From the IMG/VR virus record IMGVR_UViG_2671181122_000013: a stretch of 32,927 nucleotides of DNA. One strand, given 5' to 3'. A program made the position numbers and the translations under genes. This DNA comes from a virus. Its lineage: Duplodnaviria > Heunggongvirae > Uroviricota > Caudoviricetes. The notes below the pieces were generated by a model that was given only the letters and a program-made list of their open reading frames with translations, was not told where the DNA came from and searched no databases. Positions 1,395-32,609 of this stretch are shown in pieces; the stretch's first letter is position 1, and each line of letters opens with the position of its first letter.

Positions 1395-1446
1395 TCTTAG
1401 AAACCGATCACATACAGCTGCATTTATTAAGGTTATCATCCGTTTC
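1395..1446 (+). promoter_or_regulatory. Putative cyaR promoter with CRP-like half-site (TCACA at 1408..1412) and -10-like TATCAT (1434..1439)
   Basis: TATCAT lies 7 nt upstream of the inferred CyaR 5' end; TCACA half-site centred about -42; CyaR is known to be CRP-activated. The left half-site is a weak match (TTAGA). Confidence 0.4.
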
Positions 1447-1533
1447 GCTGAAAAACATAACCCATAAAATGCTAGCTGTACCAGGAACCACCTCCTTAGC
1501 CTGTGTAATCTCCCTTACACGGGCTTATTTTTT
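1447..1533 (+). ncRNA. cyaR: CyaR (RyeE) Hfq-dependent small RNA
   Basis: Sequence GCTGAAAAACATAACCCATAAAATGCTAGCTGTACCAGGAACCACCTCCTTAGCCTGTGTAATCTCCCTTACACGGGCTTATTTTTT matches CyaR as remembered; ends in a hairpin plus T-run; position immediately downstream of yegQ. Confidence 0.8.
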
Positions 1534-23726: not shown

Positions 23727-24920
23727 TTAAATTCTGCATCCATCGGTTTGAAAATGTGATCCGTTTTTCGAATTCAAACTCAACTCTGTTTGACTCTTTT
23801 GAACATTAATAGTTTTACCAGTAAGGACATCCAAAACCCCTGCAGCAACAGCCTGCGCCAATTTACAAGGCACAGCATTCCCTATCTGACGCCAAATTGA
23901 CGAATTTTTCCCCACAAAGACATAATTACTCGGGAATGTTTGAATCAAAAGAGCCTCATCTATCGTTAGTCGACGTAAACGACTAGGTACATCGTGCATA
24001 TCTTTTGGCTCACCACCATTCATTAGATGATTATGATAAGTCTCAACATAACTTGTTGAGCCATCATAAAGGTGTTCTTCATCAATAATTGGTGTCCTAT
24101 TCCCCCCCATAGAAGCAGCTATAGTTGAAGCATACCCATTCGGGTTAATTGGTCTTCCCTGCCCGTTAAACATCATTCCCGCGTAAGGTGACTTCCGTAA
24201 TACTGGCTTAGCAGCATTTGTAATCCTTGCATTACAGACTCTTGAATTGTTTGGATTACCCGCTCGCCCTAAAGGCCGAATAATCTCACCAACTGTGGGC
24301 GAAAGATATTGGTATTTTTTTATCGCCGCCTCAACTCGTTTCACATCATTTTCGGAACGAAACCCTATAAAAAACATACGTTCCCTATTCTGAGGAACGC
24401 CAAAATCTTTAGAATTCAGCACCAGCAAGGCTGAACGATAGCCTGACTTTTCAGCCATCTTAAACAGTTCACACCTAACTGGTTCAAATTTGGACAACTG
24501 TGCTAAAGCCTTAACATTCTCCATAACAAAGCATTCTGGTTGAATTATATCCACCGCCCGCATGAATGACATAACCAGCTTACTACGTGGATCATGAGCG
24601 TCCATTTTCCCTGCCACAGAAAATCCTTGGCATGGAGGCCCACCAAAAACACAACCTATATTTTTCAGCCCAGACAATTCACTTAGCATCTCATCAATAT
24701 CACCACAAAAAACAGGTGATTCATGATTAAGCTTAAATGTATCACATGCATCCTTATCTATATCATTGGCCCAAACTGTTCGGAACCCGGCATTAGAGAA
24801 ACCGACATCCATCCCTCCTGCCCCAGTAAATAAGCTCACCGCTGAAATTTTGTTCACTTCTTTAGCACCAATTATTCGATTTTGGAATAAAACCAATGAT
24901 AGGTAAGGATCGACACACAA
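23727..24920 (-). CDS. C5-cytosine DNA methyltransferase (Type II modification enzyme)
   Basis: Motif I LFTGAGGMDVGF, motif IV GGPPCQGFSVAG, motif VI FVMENVKAL, motif VIII QNRERMFFIGF, motif X IGNAVP. The ORF-track start at 24920 is a TTG codon; the real start may be the GTG near 24857, giving an MNKISAVSLFTGAGG N-terminus. Confidence 0.9.
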   Translation of the reverse strand: MCVDPYLSLVLFQNRIIGAKEVNKISAVSLFTGAGGMDVGFSNAGFRTVWANDIDKDACDTFKLNHESPVFCGDIDEMLSELSGLKNIGCVFGGPPCQGFSVAGKMDAHDPRSKLVMSFMRAVDIIQPECFVMENVKALAQLSKFEPVRCELFKMAEKSGYRSALLVLNSKDFGVPQNRERMFFIGFRSENDVKRVEAAIKKYQYLSPTVGEIIRPLGRAGNPNNSRVCNARITNAAKPVLRKSPYAGMMFNGQGRPINPNGYASTIAASMGGNRTPIIDEEHLYDGSTSYVETYHNHLMNGGEPKDMHDVPSRLRRLTIDEALLIQTFPSNYVFVGKNSSIWRQIGNAVPCKLAQAVAAGVLDVLTGKTINVQKSQTELSLNSKNGSHFQTDGCRI

Positions 24921-30183: not shown

Positions 30184-30374
30184 TTCCAGACCCTCCGGCT
30201 TTTCAGAAAGGTCAGAGTCTTTTTTAACGGACTCTGTTTTTTGGTGCGGATAATGATTCCCTTACGCCCCTTACCGTGGGTGATGGTGAAGTCAATCGCC
30301 CTGGGGCTTTCGTTACGCAATAACTGAGCAATACAACGAGGCTCATTCATACGGTTCTCCTTAACGTGGTTCAC
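30180..30374 (-). CDS. Small early-operon protein (P2 orf78 position), 64 aa
   Basis: Located between cox and B; overlaps both. Confidence 0.5.
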   Translation of the reverse strand: MNHVKENRMNEPRCIAQLLRNESPRAIDFTITHGKGRKGIIIRTKKQSPLKKTLTFLKSRRVWK

Positions 30375-30636
30375 CGAGACCTAACCACATCAACCAGCCG
30401 TCACGAATCTCTTTAGGACGGCTTTCATAAGCCAGTTTTAGTCCGTTATTCCATGCCGGAAGGTATACCCAATATTCACCAGCACGCCCCGATACTGACT
30501 GAGGGTCAGTAATCTCAATAACTGGTAATTTCCCTTTCTCAATCATGCCCCTTACAGCTCTTGGAGTTTTACCAATGAGTTTTGCAAACTCCTGATAAGG
30601 CACGGCATCAGTCACGCTTACAAGCTGTCTATTCAT
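30361..30636 (-). CDS. cox: Cox, excision directionality factor and Pc repressor, 91 aa
   Basis: 91 aa equals P2 Cox; first gene of the early operon, divergent from C. Confidence 0.85.
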   Translation of the reverse strand: MNRQLVSVTDAVPYQEFAKLIGKTPRAVRGMIEKGKLPVIEITDPQSVSGRAGEYWVYLPAWNNGLKLAYESRPKEIRDGWLMWLGLGEPR

Positions 30637-30757
30637 CTGCTACGATTCTCCCTTAGTGCTTCTAATGGCTCCTAATGGCTAATTATTGCCTAAAAGGATA
30701 ACTCCAGAAGCACAACATTTCACACTATCAGCAAGAAATTACGCAATCGGAGTAATT
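30637..30757. promoter_or_regulatory. Immunity switch region (Pe/Pc promoters and operators) with tandem 10-bp repeats at 30651..30680
   Basis: 121-bp intergenic region between divergent cox and C; repeats CCTTAGTGCT / TCTAATGGCT / CCTAATGGCT at 10-bp phasing; GGAG ribosome-binding site 5 nt before the C start. Confidence 0.6.
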
Positions 30758-31057
30758 ATGTCAATAGACGTTTCGGAGAAGTTGAAGCTAATCCGTGAAT
30801 CTGAAAGGTTAAACCGTAAAGAATTCAGTGAATTAACTGGTGTAGCCTACAGCTCACTTTCGAGCTATGAGAGCCGGTCAAAAAACGCTGGAGTTGAAGC
30901 CATAATGAAGGTCTTACAACATCCCAGATTTACTAAATATACTTTGTGGTTCATGACTGATCAGGTAGCTCCAGAAGCCGGGCAAATTGCGCCCGCTCTC
31001 GCACACTTTGGGCAAAACGAAACAACGTCGCCCCACTCCGGTCAAAAGACTGGTTAA
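30758..31057 (+). CDS. C: Immunity repressor C, 99 aa
   Basis: Start at the internal ATG (MSIDVSEKLKL…) gives the 99 aa of P2 C; HTH-like N-terminal region; upstream of int. Confidence 0.8.
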   Translation: MSIDVSEKLKLIRESERLNRKEFSELTGVAYSSLSSYESRSKNAGVEAIMKVLQHPRFTKYTLWFMTDQVAPEAGQIAPALAHFGQNETTSPHSGQKTG

Positions 31058-31172: not shown

Positions 31173-32198
31173 ATGGCAATCAAAAAACTCGATGATGGTC
31201 GATATGAAGTGGACATCCGCCCTACTGGACGTAACGGAAAACGCATCCGTAGGAAGTTTGATAAGAAAAGCGAAGCTGTCGCTTTCGAAAAATACACGTT
31301 GTACAACCACCACAATAAAGAATGGCTATCAAAACCAACAGACAAACGACGTCTGTCGGAACTGACACAGATCTGGTGGGATTTAAAGGGTAAACACGAA
31401 GAGCATGGGAAATCTAATCTTGGAAAAATTGAAATCTTCACAAAAATAACGAATGACCCATGCGCATTTCAAATCACGAAATCCCTTATCAGCCAGTACT
31501 GCGCCACCCGAAGAAGTCAGGGTATTAAACCTTCGAGTATCAATCGTGATTTAACATGTATTAGCGGCATGTTTACAGCCCTGATTGAAGCGGAGTTATT
31601 CTTTGGTGAGCACCCTATCAGAGGGACAAAGAGGCTTAAGGAGGAAAAACCAGAAACAGGCTATCTCACACAGGAAGAAATTGCCTTACTGCTTGCAGCA
31701 CTTGACGGCGACAACAAAAAGATTGCGATTCTTTGCCTGAGTACAGGAGCACGTTGGGGAGAAGCAGCTCGTTTGAAAGCAGAAAATATCATCCATAACC
31801 GCGTCACGTTTGTTAAAACGAAAACAAACAAACCACGCACCGTCCCGATCTCAGAGGCTGTTGCCAAAATGATCGCGGATAACAAACGAGGTTTTTTATT
31901 CCCTGATGCTGATTACCCTCGCTTCAGACGAACAATGAAAGCAATAAAACCGGATTTGCCAACGGGGCAAGCCACACATGCACTAAGGCACAGCTTTGCC
32001 ACTCATTTCATGATTAATGGAGGAAGTATTATCACGCTACAACGGATACTAGGTCACACGCGAATTGAGCAAACTATGGTTTACGCTCATTTTGCGCCAG
32101 AGTACCTTCAGGACGCCATTTCTCTTAATCCGCTAAGAGGTGGTACTGAAGCCGAGAGTGTCCACAGTAGAGTAACGTTTAAGGGCTTTCAGTGGTAA
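31173..32198 (+). CDS. int: Tyrosine integrase, 341 aa
   Basis: C-terminal catalytic region with HALRHSFATH…LGHTRIEQTMVYAH (Arg-His-Arg-Tyr context); sits next to the att core. Confidence 0.9.
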   Translation: MAIKKLDDGRYEVDIRPTGRNGKRIRRKFDKKSEAVAFEKYTLYNHHNKEWLSKPTDKRRLSELTQIWWDLKGKHEEHGKSNLGKIEIFTKITNDPCAFQITKSLISQYCATRRSQGIKPSSINRDLTCISGMFTALIEAELFFGEHPIRGTKRLKEEKPETGYLTQEEIALLLAALDGDNKKIAILCLSTGARWGEAARLKAENIIHNRVTFVKTKTNKPRTVPISEAVAKMIADNKRGFLFPDADYPRFRRTMKAIKPDLPTGQATHALRHSFATHFMINGGSIITLQRILGHTRIEQTMVYAHFAPEYLQDAISLNPLRGGTEAESVHSRVTFKGFQW

Positions 32199-32254
32199 TT
32201 TATGCCGCTCAAACCCGCATTGTACCGTTGAAAGCCCCTACTGGTGACACCCTA

Positions 32255-32282
32255 AATCTCCCTTACACGGGCTTATTTTTTA
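32255..32282. repeat. attR: 28-bp direct repeat identical to 1507..1534
   Basis: Exact copy AATCTCCCTTACACGGGCTTATTTTTTA, 57 bp downstream of the int stop. Confidence 0.85.
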
Positions 32283-32609
32283 TGCATAAGCCCTATCCCT
32301 GGTCACCGTCTTCCATTGACCACATCGATAGAATCCTCCTTCATAGCACGATGCCTTTCACTTATCGACATCGTGCTCGCACAGGTTCCGGTTACGCACA
32401 GCCAGAACGCGCATGTTTGACGCTTACCAAAAAATGAACCTAAAGCATTGGAATATTTTTGACATCATTTTCTGATGGCTGCATAAAATAAAAATTCTGC
32501 TTTAGTTTCATCTATCTGTTTGTCATTAATACTCACATTCAATAATAGTGTTGAAGAATATCCCATCACAGATAAAATAAATATGTGCATGGTAGTCTTG
32601 AATCTATTC

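Follow-up and report, generated by a model that had tools for sequence, protein, structure and literature searches.

Phased 10-bp repeats in the cox-C spacer of a P2 Hy dis-type prophage: a probable Cox operator over the Pc promoter

Prophage architecture and the repeat array

The stretch of DNA analysed here in full, referred to as the window (32,927 nucleotides), holds a P2-type prophage that is complete and flanked by yegQ and yegR, with identical 27-bp P2 att cores at 1507-1533 and 32255-32281. At the right end of the prophage, the gene order is A, B, orf78 and cox (the last on the minus strand), followed by C on the plus strand and int at 31173-32198. The divergent cox and C genes are separated by a spacer of 121 bp, and the elements discussed below are listed in Table 1.

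Table 1. Genes, predicted promoter elements and candidate protein-binding sites of the cox-C switch region (window coordinates)
Feature	Position	Strand	Basis or remark
cox, encoding a 91-aa Cox of the N-terminal winged-HTH subgroup, proposed binder of the array	30361..30636	-	PF10743, E 1.7e-42; 84% identical to P2 Cox / PDB 4lhf
Phased array of about four 10-bp units, CCTTAGTGCT / TCTAATGGCT / CCTAATGGCT / AATTATTGCC, then TAAAA	30651..30695	-	proposed Cox operator over Pc
Cox-box-like frame TTAGAAGCA, 7/9	30657..30665	-	consensus TTAAA(G/C)NC(A/C)
Cox-box-like frame TTAGGAGCC, 6/9, inside the exact repeat	30667..30675	-	consensus TTAAA(G/C)NC(A/C)
CCTAAT, opposite the annotated P2 Pc -10 (TATAAT)	30671..30676	+	Pc placed by homology only
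Cox-box-like frame TTTTAGGCA, 7/9	30687..30695	-	consensus TTAAA(G/C)NC(A/C), PMC3936717
Predicted Pe: TTGACA as -35 and TAATTT as -10 (reverse complements of 30759-30764 and 30736-30741), with 17 nt between them	30736..30764	-	predicted from sequence
Predicted C operator half-site TCGGAGTA	30747..30754	.	direct repeat, spacing 26; published Hy dis geometry
C, encoding a 99-aa immunity repressor of the P2 Hy dis / E. coli B type	30758..31057	+	65% identical to P2 C; PDB 2xcj/2l49 family
Predicted C operator half-site TCGGAGAA, overlapping the opening codons of C	30773..30780	.	direct repeat, spacing 26; published Hy dis geometry
P'-arm Cox site of attP (here in attR), second Cox target	32165..32238	+	identical to P2 Cox protein_bind 24399-24472

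The insertion point of the prophage is the terminator of the CyaR/RyeE sRNA gene (RF00112, 100.7 bits), which occupies window positions 1445-1533 and ends in the P2 att core; the terminator is regenerated by the prophage. At the 3' end of int, in the P' arm of attR (32150-32170), an 11-bp deletion has removed one of two tandem Int arm-site repeats, which read AGTGTCCACAC AGTGTCCACAG in P2 and are reduced to a single copy in the window. The same deletion frameshifts the final int codons (341 aa versus 337). Among 763 E. coli genomes with this end of int, a single one (O157:H7 strain DEC4E) shares the deletion, which may impair excision or integration of the prophage. Just outside attR, the host flank (32299-32328, compared with 1567-1596) carries a relic of the P2 P arm, matching over 27 of 31 nt (CTGGTCAC..CATTGACCACATCGA) and accompanied by two more short colinear matches. 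This relic points to an older P2-like prophage at the same site, of which only a decayed end would be left.

Within the cox-C spacer, where the first-pass annotation had placed them, lie three 10-bp units at 30651-30680 (CCTTAGTGCT, TCTAATGGCT and CCTAATGGCT), which follow one another in 10-bp phase. The reported agreement of units 2 and 3 at nine of ten positions was confirmed by reading TCTAATGGCT against CCTAATGGCT. Unit 1 matches units 2 and 3 at only 6/10 and 7/10 positions, so that CCTTAGTGCT is weak when taken alone, and it overlaps the ribosome-binding site (Shine-Dalgarno sequence) of cox. Tandem Repeats Finder returned a period-10 array of 2.3 copies at 30658-30680, and the pair formed by units 2 and 3 was also recovered by a separate repeat search. 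A fourth, degenerate unit (AATTATTGCC) occupies 30681-30690, making the array longer than first reported, and cox-box-like frames continue to 30695. The self-match of the array at a lag of 10 is 0.54, compared with about 0.2 at other lags, a value that none of 5000 shuffles reached.

Counted across the whole 32.9-kb window, tandem 10-mer pairs with at most one mismatch occur at two loci, versus 0.68 ± 0.9 in dinucleotide shuffles, and a pair of this kind is unremarkable at that scale. Such a count, together with the low agreement of unit 1, would be in keeping with a chance or neutral local duplication that has no function. Inside the 121-bp spacer, however, a tandem pair arose in only 37 of 20,000 shuffles (p ~0.002), which argues against chance at this particular place. 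The search for YCTAATGGCT in the window with up to two mismatches gave 33 matches, with 41 expected and none of them at attP; the sequence is not enriched, and in this form the unit is no genome-wide motif.

Predicted promoters and C operator, and cox-box matches

The segment from cox to C is 100% identical to that of phage vB_EcoM-720R8 and identical at 696 of 697 positions to that of the P2-like prophage of E. coli B ATCC 11303. Of 5426 complete E. coli genomes, 349 contain a 300-bp stretch of the switch (30561-30860). P2 Hy dis acquired its immunity region from an E. coli B prophage. Primer A3-44, with which Henriksson-Peltola et al. amplified the operator of P2 Hy dis, finds an exact match at 30793-30808. 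Furthermore, the repressor encoded in the window is 65% identical to P2 C, where 63% has been published for Hy dis C (PMC1904268), and the Cox encoded here carries E33, in agreement with reported Hy dis Cox (PMC3936717). On the strength of these sequence identities, with the primer match and the relationships of C and Cox, the immunity class of the switch is that of P2 Hy dis and E. coli B.

One residue departs from the published description. Cox residues 24-25 (window 30562-30567) read T24-P25, as they also do in E. coli B through codon 25, whereas Hy dis Cox is said to keep T25 like P2 (PMC3936717). This mismatch may lie in the alignment or numbering of that paper, or it may be a real difference from the Hy dis isolate.

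A putative early promoter Pe can be recognised upstream of cox, in that its predicted -35 hexamer and the position of this hexamer over the C start codon match the annotated P2 Pe -35. A scan for sigma-70 consensus promoters between 30300 and 31200 gave no match, and both Pe and Pc were consequently placed by homology with P2. According to published work, the Hy dis C repressor uses two 8-bp direct half-sites, 26 bp apart, which flank the Pe -35 (PMC1904268, PMC2995052), and one of the half-sites carries a natural mismatch (PMC1904268). This geometry is reproduced in the window, down to the single mismatch, by TCGGAGTA and TCGGAGAA, which flank TTGACA. TCGGAGWA sites are found at just two places in the whole window, 30747 and 30773, and these half-sites are 70-100 bp away from the repeats at 30651-30680.

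These positions bear directly on the proposal of the first-pass annotation that the repeats would set the immunity specificity of this phage. Since the Hy dis operator geometry is found at 30747 and 30773, the repeats at 30651-30680 are not expected to set immunity, and the proposal is not supported. Immunity specificity would be set by C through predicted binding at 30747 and 30773, to half-sites of the form TCGGAG(T/A)A that flank the Pe -35. The related idea that the repeats make up all or part of the C operator, and thereby define immunity specificity, draws on the fact that P2-type C repressors bind short direct repeats in the cox-C spacer (PMC1904268), and on the units being direct and located between cox and C. 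It is largely refuted by spacing and position. Known half-sites lie 22-34 bp apart and flank the -10 or -35 of Pe, whereas the units are 10 bp apart and at least 56 bp downstream of the Pe -10, and in a switch of the Hy dis / E. coli B type the expected arrangement is supplied exactly by TCGGAGTA and TCGGAGAA. We regard this explanation as very improbable.

On the other side of the spacer, the P2 GenBank entry annotates the -10 of Pc (TATAAT) at the cox-proximal end. In a pairwise alignment, the repeats of the window fall onto P2 TTTAATGTCT TATAATGCCT TTTAGTGCCC, with CCTAAT opposite the annotated hexamer. The cox boxes of P2, with the consensus TTAAA(G/C)NC(A/C), number six or more and overlap the -10 and -35 of Pc; a new box begins every 10-11 bp, and the stretch under Cox protection is 70 nt or longer (PMC3936717). 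Around Pc, the P2 sequence shows minus-strand matches to this consensus at 10-bp steps (TTAAACGCA, TATAAGACA and TAAAAGGCA), and the boxes of the array are read on the minus strand as well, in the same orientation. The array lies at least 56 bp downstream of the Pe -10 and within the Pe leader, roughly from +34 to +78 of the transcript expected from Pe.

Scored against the consensus, the phased chain in the array gives 7, 6, 5 and 7 of 9, which places it among the highest-scoring 0.08% of the window's chains; because several unrelated coding loci reach the same score, the consensus is supportive and not by itself diagnostic of a site. It is the units of the tandem pair that match less well (6/9 and 5/9). 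The P'-arm Cox site of attP scores 26-27 in phased consensus chains, among the top values of the window. Regarding the protein, Hy dis Cox has been reported to complement P2 cox3 (PMC3936717), and the DNA-binding helix of the Cox encoded here differs from that of P2 Cox at residues 24-26, 30 and 33.

The first-pass annotation had offered the repeats as operator or cox-box elements, and these two halves of the claim part ways. The cox-box half is supported by the position on the Pc side, the alignment with the P2 Pc -10, the phasing at one helical turn and the way in which the array follows the Cox gene, as described in the next section. The C-operator half is not supported, in view of the 10-bp spacing of the units, the Hy dis-type half-sites at 30747 and 30773 and the retention of the array where C differs.

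Comparison across related switches

The comparison set comprised 80 IMG/VR loci and 29 genome loci encoding close Cox relatives, the latter from Klebsiella, Enterobacter, Citrobacter, Kluyvera, Buttiauxella, Erwinia and other Enterobacterales. In all eight switch types, units built around TAAT(G/T)G, 3-4 in number and phased at 10 bp, occupy the cox-proximal half of the spacer, which shows a lag-10 peak (0.44-0.59, shuffle p <=0.016). Seven of the types lack such a peak in the C-proximal half, the exception being L078 with 0.45. Among the 29 genome loci, 10 is the best lag in 25. The C-proximal halves are unalignable between C types, and each has direct repeats of its own, such as ATCTAAAC twice in P2 and in L080, and TAGAGAATAYCGA twice in L078.

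Natural exchanges of C and Cox separate the two halves. Three Klebsiella-type phages that have an identical Cox and different C proteins are 79-86% identical in the cox-proximal half, whereas their C-proximal halves are 54-60% identical, for a random level of 50 ± 3.4. The reverse pairing is provided by P2 and L080: they share a C type and the ATCTAAAC operators, so that their C-proximal halves are 80% identical, compared with 65% for the cox-proximal halves. In these alignments, the array is seen to follow the Cox gene and not the C type. Phages with different C proteins retain the array and alter only the other half of the spacer, an observation that counts both against the C operator as an explanation and against any role of the array in immunity specificity. 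Spearman correlations for the tracking of Cox and C are descriptive only, given that the pairs are non-independent. Co-variation with Cox is also confounded by physical linkage of the array to the cox gene; the stronger argument is the periodicity, which is kept despite 30-45% sequence divergence.

Direct-repeat pairs near Pe were also seen outside the characterised classes. In the relatives from Klebsiella, Enterobacter and Citrobacter (loci L055-L082 and L086-L111), every C type has its own pair, for instance TTCCTTAT twice in L064 and the L078 repeats cited above (TAGAGAATAYCGA), which stand about 22 bp apart. These pairs are candidate operators of uncharacterised immunity classes.

Within the Hy dis class, 22 haplotypes were compared, and none of the 59 positions in 30637-30695 is variable, as against 11 of 40 in 30696-30735. 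The recurrence of the phased architecture in diverged relatives, P2 included, and this absence of polymorphism beside a segment with 27% variable sites both speak against a functionless tandem duplication, which is thereby left with hardly any credibility. Polymorphism is concentrated in a hot spot at window positions 30711-30735, between the array and the Pe -10, while the array and the operator on either side of it show little or no variation. The hot spot is probably an unconstrained spacer in which the two transcripts overlap.

The invariance within the class could stem from constraint on the cox ribosome-binding site or the Pc core promoter, rather than from Cox contacts. This leads to an alternative in which the repeats are core-promoter material of Pc and nothing else, made up of -10-like TCTAAT/CCTAAT hexamers, AT-rich UP-like DNA and the cox ribosome-binding site, without specific recognition by Cox. 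Each unit does contain an nnTAAT that resembles a -10, one of the P2 units is the Pc -10 TATAAT itself, unit 1 overlaps the cox Shine-Dalgarno sequence, and class invariance fits any functional promoter. Yet a single -10 suffices for a promoter, and 3-4 units have been kept in 10-bp phase in 25 of 29 divergent loci. The hexamers of the window all lack the key A at position 2, the sigma-70 scan was negative, and in P2 the boxes overlap the -10 and -35 of Pc within at least 70 nt protected by Cox (PMC3936717). As a complete account of the repeats, promoter material is therefore unlikely in our view. As cox boxes and Pc share the same DNA, this alternative largely overlaps with the reading of the array as a Cox operator.

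The location of the array inside the predicted Pe transcript raises, in addition, the idea of action at the RNA level, whereby the array, as part of the 5' leader that precedes cox in the early transcript, would work through structure or translational control. Two 8-nt arms of an inverted repeat (30656-63 / 30706-13) would be able to pair there. The Pe leader nonetheless folds no better than shuffled sequence (z = -1.46, with 18 of 200 shuffles folding equally well), an Rfam search of the region gave no match, and the right arm at 30706-30713 lies in the polymorphic segment, its positions 30711-30713 being variable. RNA explanations were rejected on these three counts, and the probability left to them is very small.

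Proposed mechanism and relation to known systems

Taken together, the repeats are most likely the core of a Cox operator in a P2 Hy dis-type prophage, an array of about four cox-box-like units (30651-30695) over a weak Pc and just upstream of cox. This interpretation joins what was computed here (the anatomy of the spacer, the homology with P2 Pc, the periodicity, the co-inheritance with cox and the invariance within the class) to what the P2 and Hy dis literature provides, namely the box consensus, the phasing, the coverage of Pc, the filament model and the operator geometry. From this combination we infer that Cox of this phage binds the array, and where exactly Pc lies.

The proposed sequence of events would begin with the firing of Pe and the production of Cox, a 91-aa winged-HTH protein. 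Cox would occupy the phased boxes cooperatively, with one protomer per turn of DNA, and the DNA would wrap on a left-handed Cox filament, according to the model drawn from P2 Cox (PMC3936717). Occlusion of Pc would stop transcription of C and int, and with C and int synthesis halted by the block at Pc, the switch would be locked in lytic growth. At high levels of Cox, the filament would be expected to spread toward Pe, which would then be autoregulated (PMC3936717). For excision, the same Cox would make use of the identical P2-type site in attP.

A more speculative extension concerns the box itself. Hy dis-type Cox (T24-P25-R26...G30...E33) might prefer a shifted box of about TTAGnAGC(A/C), the TAATGGCT repeat, that has co-evolved with the helix; the tandem pair would then be a high-affinity nucleation site, and Cox-specificity classes would be partly independent of C classes. 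We hold this to be doubtful, at the level of a tentative proposal. If it were true, Cox classes would tune the bias of the switch as well as cross-talk between co-resident P2-like prophages and P4-like satellites.

The main use of these results is correct annotation, and they have little significance beyond it. For immunity specificity, the elements to read are the half-sites with TCGGAG(T/A)A around the Pe -35 and not the repeats at 30651-30680. A 10-bp phased array beside cox is a robust signature of the whole family, present in 25 of the 29 Enterobacterales loci, and can serve for automatic annotation of Cox operators and of switch polarity. Additionally, the modularity of the spacer, with a Cox half and a C half, is directly visible in natural recombinants.

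The switches of P2, Hy dis and W-phi count as textbook cases. The type of element described here is already known: it belongs to an experimentally characterised switch, and phased repeats for Cox and Apl are well known. The nearest counterpart is the Cox operator of P2, with which the array shares its place in the cox-proximal half of the spacer, over the predicted Pc -10, its strand orientation and its 10-bp phasing; the cognate Cox proteins are 84% identical, and the attP Cox sites are identical. The differences lie in the box, which is about TTAGnAGC(A/C) here and TTAAAGNCA in P2 (5-7 of 9 positions), in the number of recognisable units, about four here with two of them in near-perfect tandem, and in helix residues 24-26, 30 and 33. 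With the Hy dis switch, the immunity region of the E. coli B prophage (Renberg-Eriksson et al. 2001, as cited in PMC1904268 and PMC3936717), the window agrees in cox-C DNA (696 of 697 positions, E. coli B ATCC 11303), in the operator primer site and in operator geometry; a small discrepancy concerns Cox residue 25, given as T25 (PMC3936717) and P25 here.

More distant systems share the logic and not the sequences. In W-phi, Cox represses Pc through direct repeats in the Pe-Pc region; however, its site is a 12-nt direct repeat without cox boxes (PMC5009727), and the protein is about 46% identical to the Cox encoded here. The operators of P2-type C repressors (P2, Hy dis and W-phi O1/O2) resemble the array in being short, non-palindromic direct repeats in the same spacer, but each is a pair of half-sites, separated by 22, 26 or 34 bp, at the -10 or -35 of Pe (PMC1904268). 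Phage 186 offers the parallel of Apl, a dual excisionase and switch regulator that binds direct repeats one helical turn apart, located between the face-to-face promoters pR-pL and at att (PMC7498355). Phage 186 differs in its protein subgroup, employing Apl with CI/CII and not Cox with C, in its site sequences and in the greater complexity of its switch.
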